NCBI GenBank assembly: GCA_963778655.1
Contig: CAVZVA010000009.1
Location: 906,235-970,234 of the forward strand
Length of the DNA stretch: 64,000 nucleotides
Source: an uncultured delta proteobacterium
GTDB taxonomy: Bacteria; Myxococcota_A; Polyangia; Polyangiales; JAFGIB01
Direction of reading: 5' to 3'
Shown: positions 356-34,811 of the stretch, piece by piece
How the letters are laid out: every line of letters begins with the position of its first letter
Position numbering within the stretch: the first letter of the stretch is position 1
Translations under genes and position numbers: made by a program
Notes under the pieces: model-generated
Seen by the model: the letters and a program-made list of their open reading frames with translations, nothing else
What the model was told of the DNA's origin: nothing
The model's database searches: none

Positions 356-406
356 GGCGATACGACGTGATGCGATGAACGCTTCAGCTCGACAGGGAGG
401 CCCCGC

Positions 407-2835: not shown

Positions 2836-3583
2836 AGCAACCCCGAGCCAGGATCGCGTCGCGATCGTCACCGGAGGGTCGCGCGGCATCGGCAAGGCGG
2901 TGGTCGAGCGGCTGTGCCGTGCGGGCGTGGAGGTCTGCTTCACCTTCCTCAGCAACGAACAGGCGGCCGACGCGGTCGTGCAGGCGCTGCGCGGCGAAGG
3001 CCACAGGCTGCGCGCCGTGCGCGCGGACTCGCGCGACAAGGCCGCGCTCGCGGCGCTCGTGGAGGGCGTGCTGGCGGAGCGCGGCAAGCTCGACGTCCTG
3101 ATCAACAACGCAGGCGTCACCGCCGATCGACTTCTGCCCATGATGAGCGACGACGAGTGGTCGAACGTGCTCGACACCAGTCTCAATGGGCTGTTCGGCG
3201 CCACGCGGCCGGCAGCGCGCCAGATGATGCGCCAGCGCGCCGGCCGCATCGTCAACCTGACCTCGGTCTCGGGGGTGATCGGCATCGCGGGGCAGACCAA
3301 CTACTGCGCGGCCAAGTCGGCGATCATCGGCTTCACCCGCGCGCTGGCCAAGGAGCTCGCCCCGTGGGGCGTGTGTGCGAACGCCGTCGCGCCGGGCTAC
3401 GTCGACACCGATATGCTGGGCTCGTTCACGCCCGCGCAGCGCAAGGCGGCGCTCGAGCGCGTGCCCATGCGCCGCTTCGCCAGCGCCGACGAGATCGCTG
3501 CGCTGGTCGCCTACGTGGCGTTGGAAGCGCCGTCATTCCTCACCGGACAGACGCTGGTGATCGACGGCGGCATGAGCACGTAG
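2825..3583 (+). CDS. 3-oxoacyl-ACP reductase (FabG-like SDR)
   Basis: ATG 2825 overlaps the upstream stop (2833-2835). Motifs: TGGSRGIGKA (NADP-binding), NNAG, and the S...YCAAKSA catalytic YxxxK. Confidence 0.9.
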   Translation: MSAEATPSQDRVAIVTGGSRGIGKAVVERLCRAGVEVCFTFLSNEQAADAVVQALRGEGHRLRAVRADSRDKAALAALVEGVLAERGKLDVLINNAGVTADRLLPMMSDDEWSNVLDTSLNGLFGATRPAARQMMRQRAGRIVNLTSVSGVIGIAGQTNYCAAKSAIIGFTRALAKELAPWGVCANAVAPGYVDTDMLGSFTPAQRKAALERVPMRRFASADEIAALVAYVALEAPSFLTGQTLVIDGGMST

Positions 3584-3747: not shown

Positions 3748-4353
3748 GTGCGGCTCGAAGCTGCTGCCGTTGCACCGGGGGTTGACGCTGTGCGTTTGAT
3801 TTCCACGGCGCTTGAAGGCGTGGTCGTGATCGAGCCGGACGTGTTCGAGGACCCGCGCGGATACTTCTTCGAAAGCTATTCGGCGCGACGCTTTGCGGAG
3901 CGGGGTCTGCCCGCTAGCTTCGTTCAAGACAACGTCTCGCGTTCGTGCCGGCACACGCTGCGCGGTCTTCACCTGCAGTCTCCGCCATTCGCGCAGGGCA
4001 AGCTCGTATACGCGCTCGAGGGCGAGGTGCTCGACGTCGCAGTCGACGTGCGCCCTGGCTCCCCGACCTTCGGCAGCGCCGTGGCCCAAGTGCTTTCAGA
4101 GAAGAATCGCCGGCAGTTCTACGTGCCGCCAGGTCTCGCGCACGGCTTCTGCGTCATCAGTGAGCACGCCGTCGTGGCGTACAAGTGCACCCAGTACTAC
4201 ACGCCGCAAGCCGAGCTATCGGTGTTGTGGAGTGACCCCGACCTCGGCATTGAATGGCCGACGTCGACCCCGCTGCTGTCAGCGAAGGACGCGGCGGCTC
4301 CTCGGCTGCGCGATATTGCCCTAGAGCGCCTGGCGCCAGGGGAGCGGGAGTAG
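3748..4353 (+). CDS. rmlC: dTDP-4-dehydrorhamnose 3,5-epimerase
   Basis: RmlC cupin motifs are present: VVVIEPDVFEDPRGYFFESY, RGLHLQ, QGKLVYALEGEVLDVAVDVR and FYVPPGLAHGF. The true start may be the in-frame GTG at 3790. Confidence 0.9.
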   Translation: MRLEAAAVAPGVDAVRLISTALEGVVVIEPDVFEDPRGYFFESYSARRFAERGLPASFVQDNVSRSCRHTLRGLHLQSPPFAQGKLVYALEGEVLDVAVDVRPGSPTFGSAVAQVLSEKNRRQFYVPPGLAHGFCVISEHAVVAYKCTQYYTPQAELSVLWSDPDLGIEWPTSTPLLSAKDAAAPRLRDIALERLAPGERE

Positions 4354-4355
4354 GC

Positions 4356-5210
4356 GTGCAGAGCACCGAGCTGTCGCCGTTGCTCCTGGTCGGCGCCACG
4401 GGCATGCTGGGTCGCGCGTTCGCCGCGCTGCTCACGCGCGAGAACCTCGCCTTCAAAGTGATGGATCTGCCGGAAATCGATCTCGCTGTTCCGGAGAGCA
4501 TTTGCGCAGCGGTGCAGCTCGGCGTGCGCACCGTGATCAATTGCGCGGCCTTTACCAACGTGGACGCCGCCGAGAGCGACGAGGCCACCGCAACCGCCAT
4601 CAATGGCGAGAGCGTCGGCGTTCTGGCGCGGCGCTGTGCGGAGCTCGGCGCAACGCTGGTGCACTTCAGCACGGACTATGTGTTCGATGGTTACGCAGAT
4701 CGACCCTATCCCGTGGATCACCAGCGTGCGCCGATCAACGCGTACGGTCGCAGCAAGGCACTCGGTGAGCGCTTGCTAGAGCAGAGCACGGCCCGCCACC
4801 TGCTCGTCCGGACCAGCTGGCTGTATGCCCCGTGGGGCAAGAACTTCGTGCTGACAATGCGCGAGCTGATGCGAACACGCGCATCGGTCAAGGTGGTCGG
4901 CGACCAGGTCGGGCGTCCCACCAGCGCCGAGTATCTGGCGGAGCGGTCGTTTGCGTTGCTGCGGCGCGGCTGCACCGGGAGCTTTCACGTGACCGATGGG
5001 GGCCAGTGCTCCTGGTACGGGTTTGCCGCTCGGATCGCGGCCTCCGAGGGGTCGAGCTGCCAGATCGTCCCCTGCACGACCGAGGAGTTTCCACGACCCG
5101 CTTCCAGGCCGCGCTACAGTGTGCTCGATCTGAGCCTCACCGAGGCGGAGATCGGACCGTCGCGCCCGTGGGAGGAGAGCTTGGAGCGCGTCCTGTCGGC
5201 GCTTTCGTGA
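4356..5210 (+). CDS. rmlD: dTDP-4-dehydrorhamnose reductase
   Basis: GTG 4356 lies 2 nt after the rmlC stop. Motifs: LLLVGATGMLGRAF Rossmann start, YGRSKALGE (YxxxK), and a C-terminal RPxYSVLD-type motif (RPRYSVLDL). The ORF-track start at 4254 overlaps rmlC. Confidence 0.9.
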   Translation: MQSTELSPLLLVGATGMLGRAFAALLTRENLAFKVMDLPEIDLAVPESICAAVQLGVRTVINCAAFTNVDAAESDEATATAINGESVGVLARRCAELGATLVHFSTDYVFDGYADRPYPVDHQRAPINAYGRSKALGERLLEQSTARHLLVRTSWLYAPWGKNFVLTMRELMRTRASVKVVGDQVGRPTSAEYLAERSFALLRRGCTGSFHVTDGGQCSWYGFAARIAASEGSSCQIVPCTTEEFPRPASRPRYSVLDLSLTEAEIGPSRPWEESLERVLSALS

Positions 5211-5901: not shown

Positions 5902-7545
5902 TCAGGCCCACCAGCGCAAGTGCCCGAATAGCAGGGCATCGGCCGCAAGCAGCAGGTTGGTGACCGCGTGCGCCGCGATCGCGTCGGTCACGCGCCCGCG
6001 CCGCTGTTGCGCCAGGGCGTAAGCCAGACCTGCGCAGGTGCCGGCGAGCCAGTCTGCATGCAGGATGCCGAATCCGAGCGACGATACGACCCATGCTACC
6101 CAGGCGATCCGTCGCGGGTCCGCCTCGGTGAAATCCGCGCGCATGAGCCGTCGCAGCAGGTAGCCCCGAAACGCAAGCTCTTCGGCGATCGGCACCACCA
6201 CGCACGCTCCCAGCGCGCGTCCCGCGAGCCATACGCCAGCACGCACTGGCCCCAACATGCGCAGTCCCTGGCGCAAGTCCCGCACCGCTGCTTCGTCGCC
6301 GCCCGCGGCTAGCAGATACCAGAGCCCGAACACCGCCACGCCGATCCCAACGCTCTGCCAGTGCAACCCCAGCGGCAACTCGCGATAGCGTGAGCGTAGC
6401 GCGAACAGCACCGCGAGCACACATGCCGCGCGCACCGGATAGAGCCAGTCGAACCCGATGTTGAGCAAGCCTGTGGCCAATCCGGTCGCGAGCAGCGTCA
6501 GCAGCGGCAGCAGATAGGCGGTCGCCGAGTTTGTATGCCCCTGGTTCGCGGTGTCGCCTTCGCTGGCAAAATAGCGTGCATTGCGCGCTATCGCGACGAA
6601 GCCCAGCGCAACGGCCGAAAAGAGGAGCCAGCCGGCCTTGGAGTGGAATCCACCGATCGCGAGTTGCGGCGATAGGTAGGTTCCGACGAGGATCAGCGCG
6701 GCGATGCGGACGATGTTCGCCATCCACACAGTGATCACGGCGATTGGAAGCAGCGCCAACGTGCGGGGGAACCGCAAGTGTCGACGTTCGATGAGCATGT
6801 ACCCAGACAGCAAGACCACGATCAGGCCGATGCCCTCGAATCCAGAGCAAATGGGTGCGACCTGCACGGCGAAGTGCGCGGTGCCAATTGTCAACGCGGC
6901 CGGTCGGACGAGGACGTCGTCCACGATCGGTCGCAGCACCGCTGCAACCGCGGAGAGCGTGATCGACGCCATCTTGTGCCAGCCTACCGAGGACAGCTCG
7001 CCGCCAACCCAGGCGGCCATGCCCGCAGCCACCCCTACACCGAGCGCGGCGGCGAACACGCGCCGCAGCTGTGAGAACGCACGCCAGGGCAGCGCGAGCG
7101 GTAGCCACGTGCCGAACACCACCAGGCCCGATAACAGCCAGCCGATTCCCCAACCGAGGCCCGGTCGAACCCCCGGATCGCCAGCGAAGACGTGGCGCGT
7201 GACGAGCAAGAACAGGGAGTAGGCGGCTGCATGCACGGCCGCGAGCGGCCATGGGTTACCCTCGGATCCGGATCTCGGCGAAAGCCCGGACAGCGCGCGC
7301 CGCAGCGTGGGCCCCATCAGCGCGAGGGCCGCCGCGGTCGCGACCAGCGCAATTGAGCCGAGGTCGCCGACGTAGTGCAGGCCCGACAGCAGGTCGCCGT
7401 TTGCTTGCAGCGACTGGGCGTCGAACAGGAAGCTGATCAGCAGGTACTCGCCGAGCAGCAGTGCCCCCGCCGCAAGCAGGCGCCTGACCAGAGGCCTGCC
7501 TTGCGCCGGCGACACTTTGAGGTCTTCGGGCGAAGGAAGGGCCAC
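5902..7545 (-). CDS. exosortase fused to a CPBP (CAAX-type) intramembrane protease domain; matches the 'exosortase E/protease, VPEID-CTERM system' architecture
   Basis: The N-terminal polytopic part carries the exosortase Cys/Arg/His signature: APICSGFEG (Cys codon 6847-6849), ANIVRIAALILVG and GFHSKAGWLLF. The C-terminal part carries CPBP motifs: EELAFRGYLLRRL, FGILHADW and HAVTNLL. The gene starts 21 bp downstream of the substrate gene. Confidence 0.8.
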   Translation of the reverse strand: MALPSPEDLKVSPAQGRPLVRRLLAAGALLLGEYLLISFLFDAQSLQANGDLLSGLHYVGDLGSIALVATAAALALMGPTLRRALSGLSPRSGSEGNPWPLAAVHAAAYSLFLLVTRHVFAGDPGVRPGLGWGIGWLLSGLVVFGTWLPLALPWRAFSQLRRVFAAALGVGVAAGMAAWVGGELSSVGWHKMASITLSAVAAVLRPIVDDVLVRPAALTIGTAHFAVQVAPICSGFEGIGLIVVLLSGYMLIERRHLRFPRTLALLPIAVITVWMANIVRIAALILVGTYLSPQLAIGGFHSKAGWLLFSAVALGFVAIARNARYFASEGDTANQGHTNSATAYLLPLLTLLATGLATGLLNIGFDWLYPVRAACVLAVLFALRSRYRELPLGLHWQSVGIGVAVFGLWYLLAAGGDEAAVRDLRQGLRMLGPVRAGVWLAGRALGACVVVPIAEELAFRGYLLRRLMRADFTEADPRRIAWVAWVVSSLGFGILHADWLAGTCAGLAYALAQQRRGRVTDAIAAHAVTNLLLAADALLFGHLRWWA

Positions 7546-7566: not shown

Positions 7567-7824
7567 CTAGGGCGCGACTCGCCGTCGCCGAGAACGGTCC
7601 ACTGCCAGCGCGATACCCCCGAGGAGCAAGGCCAAAGCCTCTCCCCCCTGGGTGGGGTTGAGCTCCGGTACCGAGGGCACCTGCTCGCCGCGCTGCAAAC
7701 TCCAGCGCCGCCATGTGTGGTGAGCGCGGAGGCTGTGTTGCGGCGGTTCGGCCAGACCGCTAGCTGGCAGCACCATTGAACCCAGGGTCCAGAGAACGAG
7801 TCCTGTGCCGATATACTTTTTCAT
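7567..7824 (-). CDS. small secreted protein with a VPEID-CTERM/PEP-CTERM-type C-terminal sorting signal (putative exosortase substrate)
   Basis: ATG 7824 is preceded by GAGGGGA. The signal peptide is MKKYIGTGLVLWTLGSMVLPASG. The C-terminus reads VPSVPELNPTQGGEALALLLGGIALAVDRSRRRRVAP, that is, a VPE motif, a TM helix and an Arg cluster. The ORF-track start at 7926 adds a non-hydrophobic leader. Confidence 0.75.
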   Translation of the reverse strand: MKKYIGTGLVLWTLGSMVLPASGLAEPPQHSLRAHHTWRRWSLQRGEQVPSVPELNPTQGGEALALLLGGIALAVDRSRRRRVAP

Positions 7825-8351: not shown

Positions 8352-9761
8352 ATGCGTGACCCCCGCGGTGTGATTCGGCCGTACGAAACGGAAGTCGAGT
8401 TTGCCTCGCGCCTTGCGGACATGGTGTGGATCAGCGTCGCGTTGTTCATCGTGTCGCTGGTCTTCGGTGAGCCGTGGCACAACGGTGAGAGCCTCGCTGC
8501 CGCTGCGGCTTCCATCCTCTTCTACCTGTTCGGCGAGGCTAGCGGGCTCTACCGCCCCCAGCGTGGGGAGCCCGTGCGCGAAGAGCTCATGCACCTGGCG
8601 ACCGCCTGGCTGGGGGTCGTCGCGATGCTCCTGCTCGTGGCGTTCTTGACCAAGACCTCGGCGCACTATTCCCGAAAGATGATGGCCGCGTGGGTGGTCG
8701 TTGCGCCGGGAGCACTTTGGGCTTGGCGCGTCGTCTTGCGCATCATGCTGCAGGAAGCGCGCGTGCGCGGCTACAACAGCCGGGCCGCGGCGATCGTCGG
8801 GGTGTCGGCGGTCGGCGAGCGGTTGGCGCGCCGCATTGCGCTGTCGCCTTGGATGGGCGTCAGGCTGGTCGGGTTCTTCGACGACCGCGGCATCGAACGG
8901 TTGGAGCCGAACAACGAGGTGCAGATCGAAGTGCAGGGCGGCTTCGACGCGCTGGTCGACAAGGCTCGCCGTCGCGAGGTCGACATGGTGTACATCGCGC
9001 TGCCACCTCGCGCCGAGCCGCGCATCAACGCCCTGGTGCGGCGTCTGGCAGATACCACCGCTTCGGTGTACTTGGCGTACGACTTCGGCGGCTATGATCT
9101 CCTCAGCGCGCGCTGGTCCAGCGTGGGCGAGGTGCCGGTCATGAGCGTGGTCGAGGACCCGTTTCACGGCGTCGATGGCCTCGTCAAGCGTCTCGAGGAC
9201 ATCGTGATGGCCGGCATCATCCTCGGCATCATCGCGGTTCCGATGGCGGTGATCGCACTGGCCGTCAAGCTGACCTCTCGCGGTCCAGTGTTCTTCCGCC
9301 AGCGCCGATATGGCCTCAACGGCGAGGAGATCCGCGTGCTCAAGTTCCGCACCATGACCGTGTGCGAGGACGGCAACGAGGTCGTGCAGGCGACGCGCAA
9401 CGACAAGCGGGTCACCCCGATCGGGGCGATCTTGCGGCGCACCTCGCTCGACGAGCTGCCGCAGTTCCTCCAGGTGCTCTCGGGCACCATGTCGATCGTC
9501 GGGCCCCGGCCGCACGCGGTCGCCCACAACGAGCAATACCGCTCGCTCATCCGCGGCTACATGCGGCGGCACAAGGTCAAGCCCGGCATCACTGGTTGGG
9601 CGCAGGTCAACGGCTGGCGGGGTGAGACCGATACCGTCGACAAGATGGAGAAGAGGGTCGAGTTCGACCTCGAGTACATCAATCGCTGGAACCTCGGCCT
9701 CGACCTCAAGATCATCCTCTTGACCGTTTGGACCGTGCTGCGCAACCGCAACGCGTACTGA
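8352..9761 (+). CDS. exopolysaccharide polyprenyl-phosphate glycosylphosphotransferase (WcaJ/EpsZ-type priming sugar transferase)
   Basis: The 469-aa protein has N-terminal TM helices, a central Rossmann-like region (AAIVGVSAVGERLARR) and the C-terminal bacterial sugar-transferase domain. Domain motifs: KRLEDIVMAGIILGI, VFFRQRRYGLNGEEIRVLKFRTM, SLDELPQFLQVLSGTMSIVGPRP and PGITGWAQVNG. Confidence 0.88.
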   Translation: MRDPRGVIRPYETEVEFASRLADMVWISVALFIVSLVFGEPWHNGESLAAAAASILFYLFGEASGLYRPQRGEPVREELMHLATAWLGVVAMLLLVAFLTKTSAHYSRKMMAAWVVVAPGALWAWRVVLRIMLQEARVRGYNSRAAAIVGVSAVGERLARRIALSPWMGVRLVGFFDDRGIERLEPNNEVQIEVQGGFDALVDKARRREVDMVYIALPPRAEPRINALVRRLADTTASVYLAYDFGGYDLLSARWSSVGEVPVMSVVEDPFHGVDGLVKRLEDIVMAGIILGIIAVPMAVIALAVKLTSRGPVFFRQRRYGLNGEEIRVLKFRTMTVCEDGNEVVQATRNDKRVTPIGAILRRTSLDELPQFLQVLSGTMSIVGPRPHAVAHNEQYRSLIRGYMRRHKVKPGITGWAQVNGWRGETDTVDKMEKRVEFDLEYINRWNLGLDLKIILLTVWTVLRNRNAY

Positions 9762-9916: not shown

Positions 9917-10987
9917 ATGTACCCATTCCCTCGGGCACGGATTTCGCTCAGCAAGAAGAGCGCGCTGGGATGCCGAGCCACGTCACCGGCGCCGTCGCAT
10001 TGGGCCCTTTCTGCCACGGCACTTGCGGCGATCGTCGCCGCGGGCTGTGCGTCGTTTCCGCCGCCGCCTATTCTGCACTCGGGCATGGGCACCGCCCCAG
10101 GCATCGCCAACGATCGGCCGCCGGATGGCTCCTTGCGCGCGGGGGACCAAGTCTTGATCGATGTCATCAGCGGGGGCCGGGTACGTCAACGCCGAGGCGT
10201 GGTGGATGCGCGGGGCCAGTTGCACGCAGCCTCCGAGCGCGATGTCGCCGTTGCGGGCTTGTCCCTGCCTCAGGCCGAAAGACGGATCGCCGAGGCCGTG
10301 CATACCTCTGACAAGTTTGCCGAAATCGAGTTGCACCTGTCGCCCCGCTCTCCCCGTCGCATGAGCGCATTCGGTGCGTTGACCAGGCCCGGGTACGTCA
10401 CGCTGACTCCGGGAATGCGCGTGGTCGATGCCATCGCGGCCGCGGGCGGGGTGCAGAGGGCGTCGGCGTCCATCCTCGGCGGAGGGCCGTTGCCGGTGCC
10501 GGTAGGCGATCTCGAGGAAGCCGTGTTGATCCGCAACGGCAAGGCCCTGCCCATCAACGTCGATCAGGCGTTGCGTGGGCAGCGTCGCCACAACGTGTAC
10601 CTGCACGCTGGCGACCAACTCTACGTTCCGCCTGCCACGGACAACGGGGTCAGCGTCTTGGGGCAGGTGGGCGCCCCCGGAATCTTTCCCCACCGCCACG
10701 GTCTGCGATTGACCGAAGCGCTCAGCGAAGCCGGCGGCATCACGATCGGCGGCGACAAGGACGACATCCGTCTGATCCGCGGACCGGTCGAGGCGCCCGC
10801 GGTGTACAGGGCGAGCCTGACGGCCATTGCCGAGGGCAAGCGTAGAGACGTGCGGCTACGATCGGGGGACGTGATCTTCGTCACCGACCACCCAATGGAA
10901 GACCTGGGCGAGGTGATGAGGCTCGTCATCCCATTCGTCGCGATCGGCGTGAGCGCGCTGGTCGTCGCCCTGATCGTGTCGCAGTGA
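9917..10987 (+). CDS. polysaccharide export protein (Wza/Poly_export + SLBB-like), lipoprotein, copy 1
   Basis: A lipobox-like AAIVAAGCAS is present. Poly_export/SLBB-type segments: GDQVLIDV, GQLHA...VAVAGLSLPQAERRI, VSVLGQVGAPGIFP and LRLTEALSEAGGIT. It ends in a hydrophobic helix (VIPFVAIGVSALVVALIV). Confidence 0.8.
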   Translation: MYPFPRARISLSKKSALGCRATSPAPSHWALSATALAAIVAAGCASFPPPPILHSGMGTAPGIANDRPPDGSLRAGDQVLIDVISGGRVRQRRGVVDARGQLHAASERDVAVAGLSLPQAERRIAEAVHTSDKFAEIELHLSPRSPRRMSAFGALTRPGYVTLTPGMRVVDAIAAAGGVQRASASILGGGPLPVPVGDLEEAVLIRNGKALPINVDQALRGQRRHNVYLHAGDQLYVPPATDNGVSVLGQVGAPGIFPHRHGLRLTEALSEAGGITIGGDKDDIRLIRGPVEAPAVYRASLTAIAEGKRRDVRLRSGDVIFVTDHPMEDLGEVMRLVIPFVAIGVSALVVALIVSQ

Positions 10988-11053
10988 GCGATTGACCGAG
11001 CGGTTGGGCCTGGCAAGATGCATGGCCGGAGCTCCCGCGGAGGAGATGCAAGC

Positions 11054-12076
11054 ATGTGGCGCCGGATCTGCAGCATCGTGTGCATCTACAGCGTGGTCGC
11101 CAGCTGTGGCGGACTGCCCCAGGCGCCCGCCTACCCGCGCAAGGGAGACGGTTTCTCGGGACCCAATCCTCTGGCCCGCCCCGGGCTTCCCCGGGATCGC
11201 GCTCCGGCGCTCACGCTCCAACCCGGCGACGTGCTGAGCATAGACGTCGCGTCCGAGCAGACCAAGACCTGGACGGGCATCGTGGTCGACGCTACCGGGC
11301 AAGTACATCTGCCGATGGCGGGCGACGTCGAAGTCGGCGGTCGGGGCTTGAGTGAGGCCGAGAGAAGGGTGCAAGAAGCCCTGCGCAAGTTCGACCGCTT
11401 CGTGCAAGTCACGATCGAGCTCACGGACGCCAAGGGGCAGCATGCCACCGTTCTCGGCGCGGTCACCACGCAGGGCTCGGTTCAGCTCATCCCAGGGGCG
11501 CGGGTGGCAGACGTGATTGCGAGCGCCGGGGGACCCCTGACAGCGCCCGCAACTCCGGGCTCCCCGCCGCTATCCATGGCAGACCTGGACGGAGCGGTGC
11601 TGATTCGAGGCGGCAAGCCGCTGCCGATCAGCATCGCCAAAGCGCTACGAGGCGACCCCGCGCACAACGTGTACGTCCACCCCGGAGACCACATCTACGT
11701 GCCGCCCGCGCTGGGCTCGAGCATCAGCGTGCTGGGGCAAGTCGGTACGCCGCGCGTGTTTCCGCACCATGCAGGGCTGCGGCTCACGCAGGCACTCGCG
11801 CTGGCGGGCGGCGTCACCGTGGGCGCCGACAAGAGCGATATCCGCGTGATTCGGGGCACGCTCGAGGCGCCGCGTGTCTACCGCGCCAGCTTGCGTGCCG
11901 TCGTCGACGGCGATTCGCACGACGTGCTGCTGCAGCCGGGCGACATCATCTTCGTGACCGACCACCCGATCGAGGACATTGGAGAGGTCGTCGGGCTGGT
12001 TGCGCCCGTGCTCTCGCTCGGTCTGAGCAGCGCGTTGCTGGCCGTTACGCTCAACCGCACCACCACGAGCCACTGA
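11054..12076 (+). CDS. polysaccharide export protein (Wza/Poly_export + SLBB-like), lipoprotein, copy 2 (tandem paralogue)
   Basis: ATG 11054 lies 9 nt after GGAGGAG. The signal/lipobox is MWRRICSIVCIYSVVASCGG. The protein is colinear with copy 1, for example ISVLGQVGTPRVFPHHAGLRLTQALALAGGVTVGADKSDIRVIRG...GDIIFVTDHPIEDIGEV. The ORF-track start at 11018 is possible but lacks an RBS. Confidence 0.8.
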   Translation: MWRRICSIVCIYSVVASCGGLPQAPAYPRKGDGFSGPNPLARPGLPRDRAPALTLQPGDVLSIDVASEQTKTWTGIVVDATGQVHLPMAGDVEVGGRGLSEAERRVQEALRKFDRFVQVTIELTDAKGQHATVLGAVTTQGSVQLIPGARVADVIASAGGPLTAPATPGSPPLSMADLDGAVLIRGGKPLPISIAKALRGDPAHNVYVHPGDHIYVPPALGSSISVLGQVGTPRVFPHHAGLRLTQALALAGGVTVGADKSDIRVIRGTLEAPRVYRASLRAVVDGDSHDVLLQPGDIIFVTDHPIEDIGEVVGLVAPVLSLGLSSALLAVTLNRTTTSH

Positions 12077-12091
12077 GGCGGTGCGGCGGCT

Positions 12092-14128
12092 TCAGGGCGG
12101 GGTTCCTTCCGCCGCCGGCGCCTGCCGTTTCAGCAGCCGCCGGTATTCGACCGCATGCGATCCGGCCGGATAACTCTCGAGGTAGCGATTCATGGCTCGT
12201 TCGGCCCTGGGCTGCTCGCCCATCGCGCGGTAGGTCGCGATCAGCAGCTCCAGCTCGCGGGCGCTGCTCGCTTTGTCCTTGAGCACGCGCACCACGCAGT
12301 CGTTGTCACCGCGTGACAGACAGTCGAGCGCCTGTTGCAGCCGAGCTTGAGGTGCGTCGGCAGCAGCTGGCGCCGGCCGCGCGGCGGGTGGCGCCTGGGG
12401 CGGGGCGGACGGTTGTATGGCCGGCGCGGGTGTGGGGCTCGGCTCTGGCGGCGCGGGGCTCGGGGCGCTGGCTCTCGGCGGTTGGCTCGGCTCCACCCCC
12501 GAGAGCGCCGTGGTTTGAGCGGCTCGCGCCGGTCCGTGGCTCGAGGTGTGCGGCACGCCGCTCGGCGGCGCGTGCGGCGCCTCGTGTGTCGAGGAGGAGC
12601 CCGCGGAGGAACCTCTGGGCGGTTCGTTGTTGGGCGGTGCCAGCGCCTGGGATGACCCGCTGCCCAGCGTCGGTGCGCTGGCAGCCGGCTGGCCGGCGTG
12701 AGCCGCGTGCGTGGGGGCTGCCGAGGCCGGCGCTGCCGCCGCCGGAGCAGGTAACGGTGCTGGAGGAGCCTTTGGCGCGGACGCTGCAGGGCTCGGGGCG
12801 GGCTCGGGATGACTGACGACCTCTTGCCCCGCGCCGACCGTGCCTCCGCCGAACACGCGGGCCAGCCCTGCCGCCGCGGCTAGCCCCGTACCGAGAATCA
12901 CCCACAGCATCCAGCGCGATCCCTCTGAGTGGCGATCGACATCCGGGAGCATGAACGGGGTTTCGTCGAGCGCGTGCTCATCGTCGCCTGAGGGCAGGGT
13001 CACGCGGGAAGCAGCCTCGCGCACGGTGGTGGCACTCGGCGCGCGCTCCCCAGGGTCGCTGCCGGGGGCCACGGGTCTTGCCGCCTGTGCCCGCAGATCA
13101 TCGGTGCGCCCCGGACCAGGAGGTCGATCGCTGGTCACACGCGACGGCCGATCGCTGTCGCCCGCGCCGGGGTGGCCGGTTCGCGCGGAGAGGCTTTCGG
13201 GTGGGGGCCGGCTGCTGTCTCCCGTCGGGCTGAGCGGGACGGACCGTTCCGGCGCCGCGGGGCCATTGCTCCCAAGCGAGGCGCCACGCCGGGTTCGATC
13301 CAGCCGCTCCCGCAGCGTGCCGGTCGCCGCGCCCGGCGACAACGATCGGGGCAGCAAGGGCGAGGGGCCGGCGTTCCTACGGGTCGCGGCCGCCGGCCGC
13401 GGCGGCAGGGGCGACCGCGGTGGGGGCCGTGGGGAAGGCCAAGGGCTGGGGTCGGCCGGGGCGCGCGAGGCGCGCGCCGGGGGCGAGGACGAAATAGGCT
13501 TGTTGGCGGCGACCTCTACAGTCGGGCTGGCGGGCAAGGGGGAGGGAGGCAGCGGCGAACGCGGGGCGGCTTTGGGCTGCGGAGGCGAGGACTCGGGTCG
13601 CGTGGCCGCGACCCCGCGCAGGGTCGGAGAGCGGCGCATCAGGGCGCTATCGATGATCTGGCGCGTCCCGGGGCTCGGCTCGCCCGGAGTGGCCAGGATT
13701 GCGAACGGCTGGGCGGCCGTGTCCGATGCCCGCACCCGCGGTGGTGGCCCGCTGCTGGTGCGGCGGTCCGAATCGGTCCGATTACGCTGGCGCTCGATCA
13801 GGGCGCGTTCGACGATGCGCTCCACGGCCTCGCGTCCGTCCGCCTCCAGGCGCACAAAGCGCACGCCCATGCCGGCAGGGCCACGGGGATCGCTCTTGTT
13901 TCGCTGCCAGACCACGCGGCCGGTTCCGCGGAAGTAATCGTCGGCCACGTCCGCCGCGCATTCGAAGCGGATCAGGGCGCCGCGCGGGGACGGGCGAGGG
14001 GTGAGGATGAACATCCCGCCCGGGGAAATGTCCCGGCACTCGCCTTCGCGTGGCTCGGTCATCGTCGGCTCGCGGTACCGAGCCACGAGCGATACCTGCA
14101 GGCGGCCTTCTTTTCGGGTGTCGTTCAC
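12092..14128 (-). CDS. PilZ-domain (c-di-GMP receptor-type) single-pass membrane protein with Pro/Ala-rich linkers and a TPR-like C-terminus
   Basis: GTG 14128 overlaps the rmlA stop (GTGA at 14128-14125). Both PilZ motifs are intact: RKEGR (RxxxR) and DISPGG (DxSxxG). About 330 aa of Pro/Ser/Ala-rich low complexity follows, then a TM helix ([21 protein letters not shown]), more Pro/Ala-rich sequence, and a helical C-terminus ([30 protein letters not shown]). The ORF-track start at 14227 would overlap rmlA by about 100 bp. Confidence 0.7.
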
Positions 14129-15009
14129 GCGTTGGGGAGGTCGTCGAGCAGGGACATCAGGTACTGCCCGTACGCGGTCTTGCTCAAGGCAGTGCCCAGT
14201 TGCTCCAGCTGGGCAGTCGTGATCCAACCATTGCGGAAGGCGATTTCTTCAGGGCAGGCGAGCTGCAGGCCCTGGCGCACCTCGATCGTATGAACGAATT
14301 GGGCCGCGTGCAGCAGGGCGTCCGGGGTGCCGGTGTCGAGCCAGGCAAAGCCGCGCCCGAGCCTCTCCAGGTGGAGCGCTCGGCGCTCGAGGTAGAGCCG
14401 GTTCAAGTCGGTGATCTCGAGCTCTCCGCGGGCGGAAGGTCGCAACGAAGCCGCCAAGTCGCTGGCTTGGCCGTCGTAGAAGTACAGGCCGGTGACAGCG
14501 TAGTGCGACTTCGGCTTGGCCGGCTTCTCCTCGAGGCTGATCACGCGGTCCTGCGCGTCGAGCTCGGCCACGCCGTAGGCCTCGGGGTCTTTGACCCAGT
14601 AGCCGAATACCGTGGCCCCGGTCTCGCGCTTGGCCGCGCGCTCCAGCACGCCGCTAAGCCCGCCCCCGTAGAAGATGTTGTCGCCCAAGACCAGGGCGCA
14701 CGGTCGGCCGCCCAGAAACTCGCGCCCGATCAGGAACGCTTGAGCCAGGCCGTCCGGGCTGGGTTGGACCGCGTACGAGAGGTCGAGCCCCCACTGGCTG
14801 CCGTCCTGGAGTAAGGCACGGAACGCGCTCTGTTCGTGGGGCGTGGTGATGACCAGGATGCGCCGGATCCCCGACAGCATCAGCGTGGTGAGCGGGTAGT
14901 AGATCATCGGCTTGTCGTAGACCGGCATGAGCTGCTTGCTCACGCCACGAGTCAGCGGGTGCAGCCTCGTGCCTGTGCCTCCCGCCAAGATGATCCCCTG
15001 TTCAATCAT
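14125..15009 (-). CDS. rmlA: glucose-1-phosphate thymidylyltransferase
   Basis: [40 protein letters not shown] is the canonical RmlA N-terminus. The protein is full length at 294 aa. Confidence 0.95.
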
Positions 15010-15248
15010 TGAGTCTCTCCTGGTGTTCCCGCCGTTCGGCTAGCGGAACCTGCCGCTCGGCGCAAGGGGCCGCCATTCGAGGTGCGACCCGTGCTCGAGA
15101 GCCTAGCGGGCCACCCCGGGACCGGCCACAGGATACCGCAGCAATGTGCTGGCAACGGAATAACGCGCGCCAGGACGAGCTGGTCTGGGCACCCACTTGT
15201 GCGATACTCCTCCGATCCGCAAGGCCGACGGCAAGGGACCGCGCGCAC

Positions 15249-16313
15249 ATGAGCTCAGGCAACATCCTCGTTACCGGCGGAGCCGGCTTCATCGGCTCGA
15301 ACTTCCTCAACCTGTGGGTGCCGCGCCAGCCCGATCGGCTGTTCGTCAACGTCGACAAGCTCACCTATGCCGCCAACCTCGGCAACCTGCGCGCGATCGA
15401 TGCACGCGACAACTACCGCCTCGAGCGCATCGACATCGCGGACCGCGACCAGGTCGCGGACGTGTTCGAGCGGCACCAGCCCGAGCTGGTCGTGCACTTC
15501 GCCGCGGAGAGCCACGTGGACCGCAGCATCGAGGAGCCGGACGCGTTCATCCGCACCAACATCGATGGCACCTTCAACCTGCTCGAGGCATTCCGCCGCC
15601 TGCACGCGCGCCGGCCGAGCGCACTGTTCCACCACGTCAGCACCGACGAGGTGTACGGCTCGCTGGGCGATCAAGGGTATTTCACCGAGAGCACGCCCTA
15701 TGATCCCTCGAGCCCGTATTCGGCATCCAAGGCCTCGAGCGATCTGCTGGTGCGCGCGTATGCCCGCACCTACGGCTTGTCGGTCAAGATCACCAACTGC
15801 TCGAACAACTACGGCCCGTACCAATTTCCCGAGAAGCTGATCCCGTTGATGATCCTCAACGCGCTCGAGCGCAAGCCGCTGCCGGTCTACGGCGAGGGCA
15901 AGAACGTGCGCGATTGGCTCCACGTGGAGGACCACTGCGAGGCGATCTGGGCGGTGATCGAGCGCGGCCGCATCGGCGCGACCTACAACGTGGGCGGTCG
16001 CAGCGAGCGCCGCAACCTCGACGTGGTCCAGGAGATCTGCCGGCTGGTCGCGGAGGAGACCTCCGCGCCGAGCGCGGAGTTGCTCGGTCTGATCACCTAC
16101 GTGCGCGACCGGCCCGGCCACGACCTGCGCTACGCGATCGACGCCTCCAAGATCGAGCGCGAGTGCGGCTGGCGCCCGCGGCACACCTTCGCTACCGGCC
16201 TGCGCGGCACCGTGCGCTGGTACCTCGAGAACCGCGCATGGGTCGACGAGGTTCGCACCGGCGACTACCAGCGCTGGATCGACGCCAACTACGGGCGGCG
16301 CTCCCCGGCTTGA
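15249..16313 (+). CDS. rmlB: dTDP-glucose 4,6-dehydratase
   Basis: ATG 15249 gives [19 protein letters not shown]. Further motifs: [21 protein letters not shown] (YxxxK) and [17 protein letters not shown]. The ORF-track start at 15009 adds an implausible 80-aa leader across the divergent intergenic region. Confidence 0.95.
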
Positions 16314-16367: not shown

Positions 16368-17624
16368 TCAGGCAGGCTCCTGCACGCGCAGCAGCACCGC
16401 GCCACCGGCGGCCAGCAGCAGCGTGAGCGAGAGGATCGACAGCCGCGGATTTCCGGTGAGCAGGCTGGTCAGTCCCATCAGCGCCGGTCCGATGATGGCC
16501 GCGGACTTGCTCAGCATGTTGTAGAAACCGAAGAACTCACCGGCTTCGGCCTCGGGGATGAGCCGGCTGTAGAGCGCGCGGCTCAGCGATTGCACACCGC
16601 CCTGCACCAGCCCGATGACCACTGCCAGCGCGTAGAACTCTCGCTCGGTGCGCATGCCGTAGCCGTAGAGCGTGACGCCCACGTATACGACCAGCCCGAG
16701 CAGCACCGCGCGCTTGCTGCCGATCGCGGTGCCGAGCCGGCCGAAAGCGAGCGCCGCGGGGAAGCCGACGAATTGCGCGATCAGCAGCGCGATCGTCAAG
16801 CTGCTGGCCTTCAGCTTGAGCGAGAGCCCATAGTCCATGGCCATCGTGATCACGGTGTCGACCCCGTCGATGTACAGCCAGTACGCCAGCAGAAACATCC
16901 ACACCACGCGCATCGAGCGCACGCGCAGCAGCGTGGCCCGCAGCTGACGCAGCGCGCCGGCGATCGCCTGCAGCGGTGGCACGGGCGTGCCGTCGGCATC
17001 CGGCTCGGGCACGTAGCGCAGCAAGGGCAGCGTGAACGCCACCCACCAGAGCGCAACCGTAACGAACGACAGGCGCACTCCAGCCTCGACGCCGGAGAGC
17101 CCGAAGCGCGCAGGCTGCAGCGCCATCAGCGTGTTGAGCGCGAACAGCGAGCCCCCGCCGAGGTAGCCCAGCGCGTAGCCGAGCGCCGAGGCGCGATCGG
17201 TCTGTTCGGGCCGGGCGACCGCCAGCAGTAAGCTGTCGTAGAACACCAGGCTGGCGAAGAAGCCGATGCTGGCCGCCGCGTAGACCCACGCGGCGGTCTG
17301 CCAGTCGCCTTTGGAGACGAGGCACAGCGCGCCGGTCATGCTCGCCCCGAGCACGGCGAAGAAGGCGAGCATGCGCTTCTTGGCGCGGCCCTTGTCGGCG
17401 ATCGCGCCGAGCAAGGGCGCGCTCAACGCGACCACCAGGCTCGCGCTGGAGTTGGCCATGCCGAGATGGAACGTGCTGGTCGTGACGTCGGCGCCTGCGC
17501 TCCAGTACTTCTTGAAGAAGAGCGGAAAGAAGCCGGCCATCACCGTGGTGGTGAAGGCCGAGTTGCCCCAGTCGTAGAAAGCCCAAGCCCAGAGCGCGCG
17601 CGTTGCCGGAGGCTCTCGCGACAT
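16368..17624 (-). CDS. MFS transporter (UMF1/Atg22-like family)
   Basis: The 418-aa polytopic protein has about 12 hydrophobic segments. The N-terminus WAFYDWGNSAFTTTVMAGFFPLFFKKYW is typical of the UMF1 MFS family as I remember it. Confidence 0.75.
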   Translation of the reverse strand: MSREPPATRALWAWAFYDWGNSAFTTTVMAGFFPLFFKKYWSAGADVTTSTFHLGMANSSASLVVALSAPLLGAIADKGRAKKRMLAFFAVLGASMTGALCLVSKGDWQTAAWVYAAASIGFFASLVFYDSLLLAVARPEQTDRASALGYALGYLGGGSLFALNTLMALQPARFGLSGVEAGVRLSFVTVALWWVAFTLPLLRYVPEPDADGTPVPPLQAIAGALRQLRATLLRVRSMRVVWMFLLAYWLYIDGVDTVITMAMDYGLSLKLKASSLTIALLIAQFVGFPAALAFGRLGTAIGSKRAVLLGLVVYVGVTLYGYGMRTEREFYALAVVIGLVQGGVQSLSRALYSRLIPEAEAGEFFGFYNMLSKSAAIIGPALMGLTSLLTGNPRLSILSLTLLLAAGGAVLLRVQEPA

Positions 17625-17700
17625 GGCGCGATGTGATCACAGCTGCGCGCCCGCGGCAAGCACGAGGGCACCCGCACCCGGCGGACCTCGACACGGCGAG

Positions 17701-18144
17701 TCAGTCGGTGCGAACGGTTCGCACCAGCAGCCCGGCTTCGTCGAGCATCGCAGCGCTCAGGTCGAAGTCCTCCCGCCAGCGCTCCGGGATCTCGAGGCCG
17801 GCCGGGTACGCGATTTCGGCGATGCCGGCTTGTATCAGCGAGCGCGCGCAACGCGTACAGGGCGGCCAGGTCACGTACGCGATGCAGCCCTTGAGCGAGA
17901 CGCCGATGCGCGCGGCGTGCATGATCGCGTTCTCCTCGGCATGGCACGCCAGTGGGTATTTCTTCTCCCGGTCTTGGAGGCGTTCGGCGTTGTCCTCGAT
18001 GCCGCGGGGAAAGCCGTTGAAGCCGGTGCTGCGGATCTCGCGGTCGGGGCCCACGACCACGCAACCGACCTGCGTCGACGGGTCCTTGCTCCACTGCGCA
18101 ATATGCTTCGCAAGAGCTACGAAACGCGCGTCCCAGTTCGCCAT
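17701..18144 (-). CDS. deoxycytidylate (dCMP) deaminase / ComEB-like cytidine-deoxycytidylate deaminase
   Basis: ATG 18144 gives MANWDARFVALAKHIAQWSKDPSTQVGCVVVG. Zinc motifs CHAEENAI and PCTRCA are present. The ORF-track start at 18642 adds a non-homologous leader. Confidence 0.88.
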   Translation of the reverse strand: MANWDARFVALAKHIAQWSKDPSTQVGCVVVGPDREIRSTGFNGFPRGIEDNAERLQDREKKYPLACHAEENAIMHAARIGVSLKGCIAYVTWPPCTRCARSLIQAGIAEIAYPAGLEIPERWREDFDLSAAMLDEAGLLVRTVRTD

Positions 18145-18439
18145 CGAGCGGCCGCTCCGGATCGGGTCCAAAAGGGCGGCGCGGCTGTCTCGCGGGCGCC
18201 CGGAAGCTCGCTCATACCGCGTCGCGGGATTCGCAGCCAGCTCAAATCTCGGGCCTACGCACATGTGGGACAGGGTCAGCGCGCTTTTCTGCGTTTGCCG
18301 CGAGCCGACCGCTGGACATCGCGCACACTCCGGATACGAGATAGGCTGTAGCACGGACGCGGTTCGCTTAGGATTGGGTGAGGGTGACGGTGCGAGGTCG
18401 GTCCAGGTGGCGAAGGCGTTGTCTGTCGAAGTAGCCGAG

Positions 18440-20002
18440 ATGACCAGGTGGTTGGCTGGCGCACCGTGGGTGCTCGCGGCGGTCATTTTCGGCACGGGCT
18501 GCGGGCTCGCGCGAAGCCCCGAGCTTTCCGGCGACTCGCGCGCGCCACAGGCGACGGTGGCCGTGCCCACGCGCAATACCGTTACCAACAACAACGGCAA
18601 CGACACCACCCAGAGCTTCGGCCCCATGGCCGTGCCCACCACGCCGGTGATGCCGATGCAGACCGGCGGCCTGCAGTGCGGTGGAGTGTTTTGCCCCTTT
18701 GCCGCCGATCCGATTCAGCCGTGCTGCACGTCCGAAGCCGATGTCACGGCAGGCGCGGCGCGGACGGCGGGCCAGTGCGGCCTCGACTTCAGCCAAACCG
18801 CCGCCACCTACTACGGCGGCTCGTGCTGGCAGCGCGATCAGCTCGGCGTGGTCGATGACCGCTGTCCTGCGGTCATGGTGGCCGGCGGGCTGCAGGAGCC
18901 AGGCTGCTGCAGTGACCAGGGCAAGTGCGGGGGGCTGAACACGACCGAGATGCTCGGCTGTCATTACGCGGCCGGCGAGACGCCCAAGCCGTGCGGCATG
19001 ATGGACGTCGAAAAGGACAAGACCTGCGAGCCGCTCGGCATTTTCGGCATTCGCTCGCTGGTCGACGTGTCTTGGGGCGGGCGTTCCGGCGGATTGGTCG
19101 GCTTGACCGACGACGGCCGGGCAATGATGACCTTCCACTTGAAGGTCACCGTCAGCAGCATCGATCCCAACACCAACGAGGTGCACGGCGAGGTCCAGCC
19201 GTGCAACGTGGTGCTGCCGCCGTTCTACAGCACCACGCTGTGCGAGTCGTACTTCCCCGAGTTCCCGGTTTCGATCTGGGAGAGCCCGAAGCTGCCCAAG
19301 ATCGAGCTGAGCGGCCGCTACCAATGCCTCAATCCCGGCTGCATCATGACGATCGACGCCAAGACTGCGCTGCTCGGCATCGATCTGACCAATCCCGAAG
19401 CGCCGTGGCCATCACCCACGGATACGCCCTCGCTGAGCTGCCCTGCCGGAAGTGGTGCGCAATGCTTCCCCGATCAGGACAACGACAAGCTGCCTGGGAT
19501 GACGGTCAAGCTGCGCACGATGGGCATGGCGCCGCCCGGCGTCGGCTGTGCGAATACCGGATACGCCTTTCAAGGCGCGCCGCTCAGCTCGAGCCCGGCC
19601 GCGATCTTCGGCGGCGTGCGGCGCGCCGACCGTGTGCTGCTGGGAACGCGGACCAAGCTCGGCGGCTCGGGCAAGATCTCCGACGACTGCAACAGCGGAA
19701 GCGGTACCGGCATTGCCGAGTTCGTGCAGTCGCGGGCCTGGGGCTGCCTGGTGCAACCGGGCACCGCGGACTTTCCCGGGCCGGCGGCGGGGCCGAACGA
19801 GGCCTGCGGCGCGGCTCAGGCCCAGTTCCTCGATGAGAACATGCCGATCTACAACATCCTCGCCGTGGGACAGGCACCCGACCCGATGCTCAACGTGGTC
19901 GACAAGTCGGTCAGCGAGGGTTCCAAGTTCAGCATGGTGCGTCTGGGCAAGCTCGGCGACACCGTGACCTGCGCGGACGTGCGCAACGCGACTTATCCCT
20001 GA
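18440..20002 (+). CDS. secreted Cys-rich lipoprotein, unknown function (module A + module B)
   Basis: ATG 18440 gives MTRWLAGAPWVLAAVIFGTGCGLA (lipobox). The N-terminal Cys-rich module reads QCGGVFCP...CCTS...QCG...PGCC...CGG...GC. It also has a roughly 400-aa C-terminal domain shared with the next gene. The ORF-track start at 17603 runs antisense through the dCMP deaminase gene. Confidence 0.75.
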   Translation: MTRWLAGAPWVLAAVIFGTGCGLARSPELSGDSRAPQATVAVPTRNTVTNNNGNDTTQSFGPMAVPTTPVMPMQTGGLQCGGVFCPFAADPIQPCCTSEADVTAGAARTAGQCGLDFSQTAATYYGGSCWQRDQLGVVDDRCPAVMVAGGLQEPGCCSDQGKCGGLNTTEMLGCHYAAGETPKPCGMMDVEKDKTCEPLGIFGIRSLVDVSWGGRSGGLVGLTDDGRAMMTFHLKVTVSSIDPNTNEVHGEVQPCNVVLPPFYSTTLCESYFPEFPVSIWESPKLPKIELSGRYQCLNPGCIMTIDAKTALLGIDLTNPEAPWPSPTDTPSLSCPAGSGAQCFPDQDNDKLPGMTVKLRTMGMAPPGVGCANTGYAFQGAPLSSSPAAIFGGVRRADRVLLGTRTKLGGSGKISDDCNSGSGTGIAEFVQSRAWGCLVQPGTADFPGPAAGPNEACGAAQAQFLDENMPIYNILAVGQAPDPMLNVVDKSVSEGSKFSMVRLGKLGDTVTCADVRNATYP

Positions 20003-20122
20003 ACCAGCTGCGCGTTCCTGCGGCGCTCCCCCACGGCACTGTGCAAAACAGGCCACCGTTGTGTTCCGCAGGTAACCGCCTAGACTCCGCCTAGGGGAAA
20101 GCTTGCGAGGGTGCTGCCTGTG

Positions 20123-34699: not shown

Positions 34700-34811
34700 G
34701 GTCTTCTCCGAAAAGGGCACCGGCCGCGCCGGCCCGGGGGCCCGACTTTCCAAGCTCTAGCACACGGGGGCCCCGGCGCGGAGGCCTGCGCGGCCTGACG
34801 GGCGGGCGGCT

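Follow-up and report, generated by a model that had tools for sequence, protein, structure and literature searches.

The PilZ gene and its neighbours

The window considered here is a stretch of 64,000 nucleotides from an uncultured delta proteobacterium of the Polyangiales (lineage JAFGIB01; assembly GCA_963778655.1, contig CAVZVA010000009.1, positions 906,235 to 970,234), and its element of interest is a gene for a membrane-spanning protein with an N-terminal PilZ domain, whose product probably links the biofilm signal cyclic di-GMP (c-di-GMP) to polysaccharide production. The PilZ gene occupies 12092..14128 on the minus strand (678 codons plus the stop codon at 12092-12094) and encodes, in this order, the PilZ domain, a disordered tether, a transmembrane (TM) helix, a Pro/Ala-rich spacer and a small TPR-like module, here called the mini-TPR; counted from a GTG start, the product has 678 residues. 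Directly upstream and on the same strand lies rmlA (14125..15009, minus strand) for glucose-1-phosphate thymidylyltransferase (Pfam NTP_transferase, 244.8 bits), and divergent from rmlA follows rmlB (15249..16313, plus strand) for dTDP-glucose 4,6-dehydratase (Pfam GDP_Man_Dehyd and Epimerase). On the downstream side, the plus strand carries a WcaJ-type initiating phosphoglycosyl transferase (PGT) at 8352..9761, which matches TIGR03023 with 543.7 bits against a cut-off of 410.75, and two Wza-like lipoproteins of the outer-membrane polysaccharide export (OPX) type. OPX 1 (9917..10987, plus strand) was assigned with Pfam and is 49% identical to OPX 2 (tblastn), while OPX 2 (11018..12076, plus strand) shows the Pfam domains Poly_export and SLBB, the lipobox VVASC and a C-terminal hydrophobic helix. 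As the original prediction, a reading of the sequence without database searches, had stated, the 3' end of the PilZ gene converges on this pair of genes, with 15 nt between the end of OPX 2 at 12076 and the PilZ stop codon.

At the other end of the gene, the predicted overlap of the GTG start with the rmlA stop codon is directly visible on the minus strand, which reads ...aacgcGTGAacgac across the junction, so that the start GTG (14128-14126) and the TGA of rmlA (14127-14125) have two bases in common. A TTG within rmlA, 33 codons farther upstream, would open the longest possible open reading frame (ORF). The choice of the GTG is confirmed by comparison with six homologous loci (L001, L010, L085, L086, L087 and L005), in which the equivalent codon is GTG, TTG or ATG. 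Three of these (L001, L010 and L085) have an in-frame stop 2-3 codons ahead of the equivalent start, and therefore no alternative start can take in RxxxR, the first of the two c-di-GMP-binding motifs of PilZ domains. In addition, the first 22 residues including RxxxR are conserved in homologous loci, upstream of the ATG that is called automatically. This ATG, equivalent to residue 23, was chosen in the database entries P0003 (100% identical, 656 aa), P0004/L001 and P0011/L098, all of which drop RxxxR; the residues cut from these public gene calls correspond to window positions 14063-14128. Database copies without the first c-di-GMP motif thus result from start mis-annotation only, and the internal ATG makes them wrongly resemble non-binding or degenerate PilZ proteins.

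Translational coupling to rmlA by way of the GTGA sequence had also been proposed, and here only a part of the claim can be retained. The overlap itself is real, but a 4-nt overlap is found in the window genome only, the distances from the rmlA stop to the start of the PilZ gene in relatives being +1 (L086), +7 (P0005 contig), +16 (L097), +23 (L085), +36 (L087), +43 (L010) and +45 nt (L001). Conserved translational coupling was rejected for this reason; what is conserved instead is co-orientation and tight spacing, and re-initiation coupling from rmlA to the PilZ gene is plausible as a local feature of the window genome. No Shine-Dalgarno-like purine run was seen before the start of the gene in the window. 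A promoter and terminator scan of 11800-15400 returned no promoter-like site and one terminator-like site that did not rise above shuffled controls.

The GC content at third codon positions (GC3) in the frame of the PilZ ORF is 0.70-0.86 in every 50-codon block over the full length, and in this window, with 69% GC overall, a high GC3 is a coding signature. There is next to no probability that the gene model is an annotation artefact in which a short PilZ protein alone is made and the long low-complexity remainder is an untranslated chance ORF. Such a reading could draw on an antisense ORF (375 codons, 12813-13937, plus strand) inside the disordered region of the PilZ gene, which likewise shows a GC3 of 0.81, and on the metagenomic relative P0001, which is called as a 131-aa protein and then a separate gene. 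It is opposed by the high in-frame GC3 over the whole ORF, by a C-terminal domain that is kept in frame about 590 codons downstream in more than 40 homologues with very different tethers, and by TM helices at the equivalent place in homologues; on these grounds the chance-ORF reading was rejected for practical purposes. The antisense ORF has no homologues and is a shadow ORF of the Pro/Ala/Arg-rich, GC-rich coding strand, not a gene. In the relative P0001, which is 72% identical and lies on a 1623-nt contig (JGI 3300043331), the gene called after the 131-aa PilZ protein encodes at least 320 aa; the tail of P0001 after RLE looks out of frame, and a frameshift or a mistake in assembly, not a gene split in nature, probably explains the two calls.

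Domain architecture of the product

The N-terminal 110 or so residues had been interpreted as a PilZ domain, and a comparison with profile hidden Markov models (HMMs) agrees. Residues 4-107 (13808..14119, minus strand), the predicted cytoplasmic c-di-GMP receptor module, match Pfam PF07238 with 46.3 bits against a cut-off of 22.5, over model positions 2-101 of 102. The full-length AlphaFold2 model was built with a 42-sequence family alignment, which also underlies the conservation counts given below. It shows a beta-barrel at residues 10-95 with predicted local distance difference test (pLDDT) values above 90 and six strands between residues 14 and 94 (pLDDT 92-97), followed by a helix at 98-123 (pLDDT 88-94). 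Both c-di-GMP-binding motifs, earlier described as intact, can be read from the sequence: RxxxR is present as R5-K-E-G-R9 (14102..14116, minus strand) and (D/N)xSxxG as D33-I-S35-P-G-G38 (14015..14032, minus strand). R5 and R9 are kept in 32/34 family sequences that cover the position, the rest of the alignment being truncated gene calls, and they are invariant in the rml-linked clade to which the window protein belongs. The second motif is conserved to a similar degree (D/N33 in 41/42, S35 in 40/42 and G38 in 41/42), and PF07238 is matched by 42/42 members. The PilZ domain is predicted to bind c-di-GMP. It matches the model of the Myxococcus paralogous PilZ-like domain TIGR02266 (positions 22-96 of 96, E=2.7e-15), though its 56.3 bits stay under the curated cut-off of 68.7; TIGR02266 covers the domain only and is silent on the architecture of TM helix, PEGA domain and mini-TPR and on function. 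Sequence similarity to solved PilZ structures was found neither with the single sequence (E<=1) nor with the family profile (E<=0.1), and phmmer with the full protein against the PDB returned nothing at E<=1. As a further feature of the domain, Cys31 is present in 37/42 members and Cys57 in at least 90% (E-C31 and E-C57; 13958-14038, minus strand); such conservation appears unusual among PilZ domains, and a redox or metal role is possible.

Residues 124-404 (12917..13759, minus strand) constitute a cytoplasmic tether that is disordered by composition and by AlphaFold2, with pLDDT below 50 over most of its length. About 330 residues of Pro/Ser/Ala/Arg-rich disorder had been predicted: the disorder is upheld, whereas the length is shorter, at about 280 aa, and the composition of the wider stretch 116-445 is 18% Pro, 13% Ala, 12% Ser and 12% Arg. 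Three short motifs are conserved in this tether, which otherwise evolves fast. The first is P-T-L-R-G at residues 168-172 (13613..13627, minus strand), with T169 and L170 invariant in the rml-clade alignment A4. The clade alignment further reveals an 11-residue motif at residues 272-282 (13283..13315, minus strand), whose core RxRLDR(T/S)RR occurs in 8/10 clade sequences and of which an LRERL-like remnant is found in the sister clade too, as well as SDRPPxPGxxDDLR at residues 333-346 (13091..13132, minus strand), in which P336 is invariant. The SDRP units are repeated in P0004. The conservation of these linear motifs is consistent with partner binding.

The single TM helix that had been proposed lies at residues 405-426 (12851..12916, minus strand), which hold the only strongly hydrophobic 19-mer (Kyte-Doolittle 1.72) and are modelled as a helix by AlphaFold2 (pLDDT about 64-81); nearly all family members likewise have one TM helix, located at the corresponding position. 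It is followed by the predicted periplasmic Pro/Ala-rich spacer, whose 165 aa (residues 427-591; 12356..12850, minus strand) come close to the 170 or so expected from the first reading, and which is disordered in the AlphaFold2 model. Its composition reaches 24% Ala and 24% Pro over residues 476-600 and is richer still in these residues over 446-475. A tandem-repeat analysis of the low-complexity DNA found only two weak 2-copy arrays, so this DNA is not a repeat expansion. In most relatives a PEGA-like beta domain is placed between the TM helix and the mini-TPR, and an HMM of this block matches 27/42 sequences from both clades; the same model gives no match in the window protein, in its closest relative P0004/L001 or in L005, and Pfam PEGA itself is matched at E<0.01 in 2 relatives only. 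The window copy is therefore a PEGA-less derivative in which the Pro/Ala spacer alone remains.

The mini-TPR comprises five helices at residues 592-669 (12122..12355, minus strand) and includes Cys603 and Cys611. Its helices have a pLDDT of about 97 in the full-length AlphaFold2 model and of 88.9 when the module is modelled alone with 35 homologues. Among the top 50 Foldseek matches in the PDB essentially all are TPR or TPR-like, with template-modelling scores of 0.6-0.7 and E values of at least 0.07; they include MamA, designed CTPRs and the proline-peptide-binding domain of collagen prolyl hydroxylase, and further PelB 319-436, PilF, YbgF and LpoP. The sequence profile of the module finds the TPR of PelB (5wft, 9h80; residues 383-439) with E=1.1e-4 and YbgF with E=2e-3, which makes PelB the closest solved sequence relative, with about 50 residues aligned and borderline significance. 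Pfam TPR models give no match at E<0.01 in the window protein, while among the 42 relatives TPR_14 is matched in 5/42 and TPR_6 in 3/42. The predicted helices together with the fold and profile matches support the TPR-like helical end that had been noted originally, and the module is best modelled as a divergent two-and-a-half-repeat TPR with an added Cys pair, TPR-like by fold.

Cys603 and Cys611 are invariant across the family alignment (CLxRGDNxC) and mark a putative disulfide-type end. Small proteins with signal peptides (P0037, P0043, P0045, P0053 and P0147) contain the Cys-bearing module as a tandem pair, P0103 is among its carriers too, and an unrelated 558-aa protein ends in it; the pattern CLxRGDxxC...LLIETYR...YxxRFP...YR is found in P0037, P0043, P0045, P0053, P0147 and P0103. 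No dedicated Pfam family matches the Cys-pair mini-TPR, for which only weak generic TPR models were found, and it behaves as an autonomous extracytoplasmic domain. The invariant Cys pair and the occurrence behind signal peptides indicate that the mini-TPR is extracytoplasmic and support an N-in/C-out topology, which is also what a c-di-GMP-binding PilZ domain requires.

Family, distribution and synteny

The full-length family was recovered only when 1.84 billion cluster representatives (clusters at 50% identity) were searched exhaustively with HMMER, which yielded 1755 matches at E<=1e-3, of which 29 reached E<=1e-30. Among the best 150 of these matches, 48 combine the PilZ domain with the C-terminal module as judged by single-sequence phmmer, giving at least 48 cluster representatives overall, and almost all have one central TM helix. 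A word-index homologue search retrieved two fragments only for the PilZ domain and none for the C-terminal 100 aa; with a profile of the C-terminal domain the word index returned only fragments of about 48-157 aa, mostly of 75 aa, and unnamed save for one generic 'PilF' label. When genome contigs were scanned with profiles, a 3-sequence alignment found 0 relatives and the 42-sequence alignment 94. The 80 best GTDB matches nearly all belong to metagenome-assembled genomes (MAGs) of Polyangiales, Polyangiaceae, Sandaracinaceae or Myxococcales, and the family appears almost confined to Polyangia MAGs. In the source databases its members are labelled "PilZ domain-containing protein", "uncharacterized protein (TIGR02266 family)" (JGI) or "hypothetical protein"; the identical protein is encoded on a 1.56-Mb NCBI/ENA contig. 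A neighbour-joining tree of the two conserved domains contains two cleanly separate clades, and single MAGs such as JAYUYY01 (L010 and L014) and JBIOJD01 (L005 and L008) carry both.

In the clade of the window protein, rmlA is directly upstream on the same strand in 13/15 loci, namely the window, L001, the P0005 contig, L010, L085, L086, L087, L088, L089, L091, L092, L097 and L098. A convergent OPX gene is located downstream in 6/9 loci with enough downstream sequence (window, L085, L086, L087, L088 and L097), and wherever the contig reaches far enough the block is a full OPX-OPX-PGT arrangement, the position of the PGT being conserved in L085, L086, L087 and L097. The arrangement of rmlA and OPX is still present in P0016/L097, the member that has diverged furthest, with 34% overall identity. 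The position of rmlB is likewise conserved in L001, L010, L085, L091, L092 and L097, and in L091 a full rmlB-rmlC-rmlD set is divergent from rmlA and the PilZ gene. These loci may include related populations; the protein identities of 34-57% indicate different species or genera. OPX 1 and OPX 2 each have a lipobox and a C-terminal hydrophobic helix, and the conservation of the pair in L085, L086, L087 and L097 suggests a hetero-oligomeric translocon. Within the available flanks, which on short contigs limit what the absence of an OPX block or of a polysaccharide co-polymerase (PCP) can mean, no PCP gene accompanies the OPX pair in any conserved locus.

Further rhamnose and export-related genes of the window lie beyond the PGT. 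They comprise rmlD for dTDP-4-dehydrorhamnose reductase (4254..5210, plus strand; Pfam RmlD_sub_bind, 287 bits), an exosortase E/CAAX-protease fusion of the VPEID-CTERM system, XrtE (5902..7545, minus strand; TIGR04162, 208.6 bits against a cut-off of 150), and a small VPEID-CTERM-like protein of 85 aa (about 7567-7824, minus strand), in which the VPEID-CTERM domain is matched with E=2e-5 and 24.5 bits, below the cut-off of 33. The 85-aa protein beside XrtE has a signal peptide and, at its C-terminal end, VPELN, a TM helix and an RSRRRR tail. Synteny in L085 reaches a VPEID-CTERM protein and XrtE at the matching place, and owing to this recurrence the polysaccharide locus appears to be associated with XrtE/VPEID-CTERM.

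The sister clade has a different setting. Here, a REC-GerE-PilZ or GerE-PilZ regulator is encoded directly upstream on the same strand in 11 loci (L002/L009, L003, L006-L008, L011, L014, L017, L020, L060 and L069), and no sugar genes are adjacent. The upstream gene encodes a LuxR-type (GerE) helix-turn-helix (HTH) protein with a C-terminal PilZ domain, and in L003 also a REC domain. It is possible that the GerE-PilZ protein and the sister-clade member form a two-PilZ signalling pair.

Proposed role, alternatives and related systems

The reading that the PilZ gene product acts as a membrane-anchored c-di-GMP receptor or accessory in a rhamnose-containing polysaccharide initiation and export module is given roughly even chances. 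In its favour are the conserved PilZ motifs, the architecture in the AlphaFold2 model and the operon-like position behind rmlA; the conserved synteny with rmlA and OPX-OPX-PGT lends further support to a link with polysaccharide export, and PelB, the solved protein closest in sequence to the mini-TPR, serves the Pel polysaccharide exporter as its TPR scaffold. In such a module, the periplasmic mini-TPR would dock at the Wza-like OPX translocon or at a periplasmic partner and so fix the protein at export sites. The spacer, if extended, could reach over tens of nanometres, as estimated from a rise of about 0.3 nm for each residue, and would be long enough to bridge the periplasm. Upon a rise of c-di-GMP, the PilZ domain and the tether motifs would bind, recruit or activate a cytoplasmic or membrane partner, for which the WcaJ-type PGT or the Rml enzymes would be the most plausible candidates; the PGT is the most attractive partner because it is the sole membrane enzyme of the conserved block, and RmlA is an alternative because of its tightest linkage. 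As a consequence, initiation and precursor supply would be switched on post-translationally at the export site. Hundreds of disordered residues, on either side of the membrane, lie between a second-messenger sensor and its periplasmic end, which poses the problem of how a signal could pass from one side to the other, if it does so at all. With about 280 disordered residues between the PilZ domain and the membrane and 165 between the membrane and the TPR, tethered recruitment or scaffolding is likelier than rigid transmembrane allostery.

Several observations weigh against a role in polysaccharide export. In its own clade, rmlA is not upstream of the gene in L005 and L090, and the downstream OPX block is absent from L001, L005 and L098. 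The ORFs scanned elsewhere in the window encode kinases, polyketide synthase (PKS) and fatty acid synthase proteins, thiolases and secreted proteins rich in Cys; a PCP, Wzx, Wzy or glycosyltransferase is not among the scanned ORFs, so that they do not delineate a pathway. Since the sister clade stands beside REC-GerE-PilZ regulators rather than sugar genes, the ancestral or core role may be signalling or scaffolding, and the absence of the PEGA-like domain from the window copy means that any PEGA-dependent function is lost or altered. In addition, the PelB match is borderline and the E values of the Foldseek matches amount to generic TPR similarity, and every host is an uncultured MAG. A more far-reaching version, in which the family is a hitherto unrecognized class of inner-membrane partners for Wza-type OPX translocons and a c-di-GMP-gated, single-pass tether across the envelope replaces the PCP (Wzc/Wzz) or works beside it, is considered quite unlikely. 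If it were true, the initiating PGT and dTDP-rhamnose supply would be physically linked to the outer-membrane pore, and a PGT/OPX (Wzx/Wzy-like) export pathway would for the first time be seen to contain a direct c-di-GMP receptor.

The principal competing explanation, itself judged unlikely, sees the protein as the membrane-tethered partner of a transcription factor, in which a regulator is retained or set free by the PilZ domain and the tether motifs, depending on c-di-GMP and/or a periplasmic cue that the PEGA domain or the mini-TPR perceives; in the clade of the window the output would be transcription of rml and polysaccharide genes instead of direct control of the machinery. The 11 sister-clade loci with a REC-GerE(LuxR HTH)-PilZ gene directly upstream on the same strand, the paralogues of both clades in JAYUYY01 and JBIOJD01, and the short conserved motifs of the cytoplasmic tether, which are typical of docking sites, all agree with this explanation, but neither the window nor any other rml-clade locus has a DNA-binding regulator beside the gene, and the clean separation of the clades in the tree allows for a divergence of functions. 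A general structural or coordinating role across the envelope, comparable to that of TonB, TolA or CpoB/LpoP, appears improbable. According to it, the spacer and the mini-TPR would contact peptidoglycan-synthesis or outer-membrane factors under modulation by the PilZ domain, and rml and OPX genes would merely be part of a shared envelope theme. While the Pro/Ala-rich periplasmic spacer, the profile and fold matches of the mini-TPR to YbgF/CpoB, LpoP and PilF and the loci without an OPX block suit this role, it finds no counterpart in HMM matches to TonB_C, TolA or other envelope domains, nor in adjacent tol, exb or penicillin-binding protein genes, and the frequent linkage to rmlA would be hard to account for.

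There is also a small chance that the PilZ domain is a protein-interaction module that does not bind c-di-GMP, leaving the protein to act independently of the second messenger. The PilZ protein of the type IV pilus system is such a module and is not known to bind c-di-GMP. Non-binding PilZ domains exist, and that of Myxococcus xanthus Pkn1 is predicted to be one (PMC8316039). The subthreshold match to TIGR02266 and the missing sequence similarity to solved PilZ structures in the searches described above could be taken in the same sense, but the canonical motifs are intact and conserved almost throughout the family, with the arginines of RxxxR and the three positions of (D/N)xSxxG each lost in two sequences at most.

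Turning to known systems, synthase-dependent pathways such as BcsA, Alg44, PelD and PgaCD offer well-established cases in which c-di-GMP governs polysaccharide secretion post-translationally. A PilZ receptor in a polysaccharide locus is of a known kind, whereas the architecture and the PGT/OPX setting were not found described in the literature searched. Searches on PilZ with PEGA, on VPEID-CTERM and on PilZ with Wza brought up nothing relevant, neither the architecture of PilZ, disorder, TM helix and mini-TPR nor the pairing of PilZ and OPX was found described, and no PilZ receptor within a pathway of PGT and Wza-type outer-membrane exporter was found. The conserved binding motifs and the rmlA/OPX-OPX-PGT synteny make the family a concrete candidate receptor for such a pathway.

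The closest outline is that of Alg44, the alginate co-polymerase of Pseudomonas, to which the original prediction had compared the protein. Both have an N-terminal cytoplasmic PilZ domain with RxxxR and DxSxxG, a single TM helix and a periplasmic C-terminal part, both are encoded in a polysaccharide locus, and the window protein is proposed to follow the logic of Alg44 in which c-di-GMP acts post-translationally. The comparison holds for this outline, though not for family membership. In place of the HlyD/membrane fusion protein (MFP)-like domain of Alg44, the window protein has the Pro/Ala spacer and the mini-TPR (in relatives also the PEGA-like domain), a difference in the periplasmic part that had been recognized from the start; the long tether stands between its PilZ domain and the membrane; and its locus is of the PGT and Wza-like OPX type, with no Alg8-like family 2 glycosyltransferase (GT2) synthase among the scanned ORFs of the window or related loci. 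As PilZ is the only Pfam/NCBIfam match and both the HlyD/MFP-like domain and an Alg8-like partner are missing, membership in the Alg44 family was rejected. Membership in the PCP (Wzz/Wzc) family was also rejected, given no Wzz or GNVR HMM match, one TM helix and no coiled coil in the AlphaFold2 model, as was membership in the TonB family, given no TonB_C match and an all-helical, TPR-like C-terminus.

Other systems share single elements with the protein. PelB provides the best solved-structure match to the mini-TPR (residues 383-439) and is, likewise, a periplasmic TPR protein of a c-di-GMP-dependent exporter, but its long TPR array is fused to a beta-barrel porin. The c-di-GMP receptor of the Pel system is a separate protein without PilZ, the degenerate GGDEF protein PelD. 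In BcsA-type synthases, too, a PilZ domain gates polysaccharide output post-translationally, as proposed for the window protein; there it is a direct fusion partner of the GT2 synthase, whose gating loop is its target, whereas the window protein has a long disordered linker and no catalytic domain. With TonB, TolA and CpoB (YbgF) it has in common an inner-membrane anchor, a Pro-rich spacer that spans the periplasm and a small C-terminal interaction domain, and it differs from them by its large cytoplasmic sensor domain and by the absence of TonB_C or TolA domains and of ExbBD or TolQR neighbours. A parallel for the proposed node of action, a small cytoplasmic signalling protein acting on an initiating PGT, is available from M. 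xanthus, where EpsW is reported to activate EpsZ, the initiating PGT of a Wzx/Wzy-type pathway, post-translationally (PMC12802240). Unlike the window protein, EpsW is reported to be a soluble single-domain response regulator, neither membrane-anchored nor equipped with a PilZ domain (PMC12802240).

The remaining genes of the window are of diverse kinds. Lipid or polyketide genes flank the polysaccharide locus: a trio of ketosynthase (KS), KS-like (chain-length factor type) and ketoreductase genes (371-3583, plus strand) is found upstream of rmlD, and a hybrid PKS of 1615 aa with AMP-ligase, acyl carrier protein, KS and acyltransferase domains is encoded at 45254-50098 on the minus strand. Beyond rmlB and a major facilitator superfamily gene, two large Cys-rich ORFs (17555-20002 and 20084-22981, both plus strand), one without a family match and the other with weak EGF-like matches, may encode secreted or surface proteins. 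Finally, three proteins of about 1300-1430 aa combine a Ser/Thr kinase with an AAA_16/STAND NTPase (24262-28560, plus strand; 34761-38669, plus strand; 55862-59755, minus strand), and TPR proteins are encoded directly beside two of the three (29291-30682 and 59977-61341).

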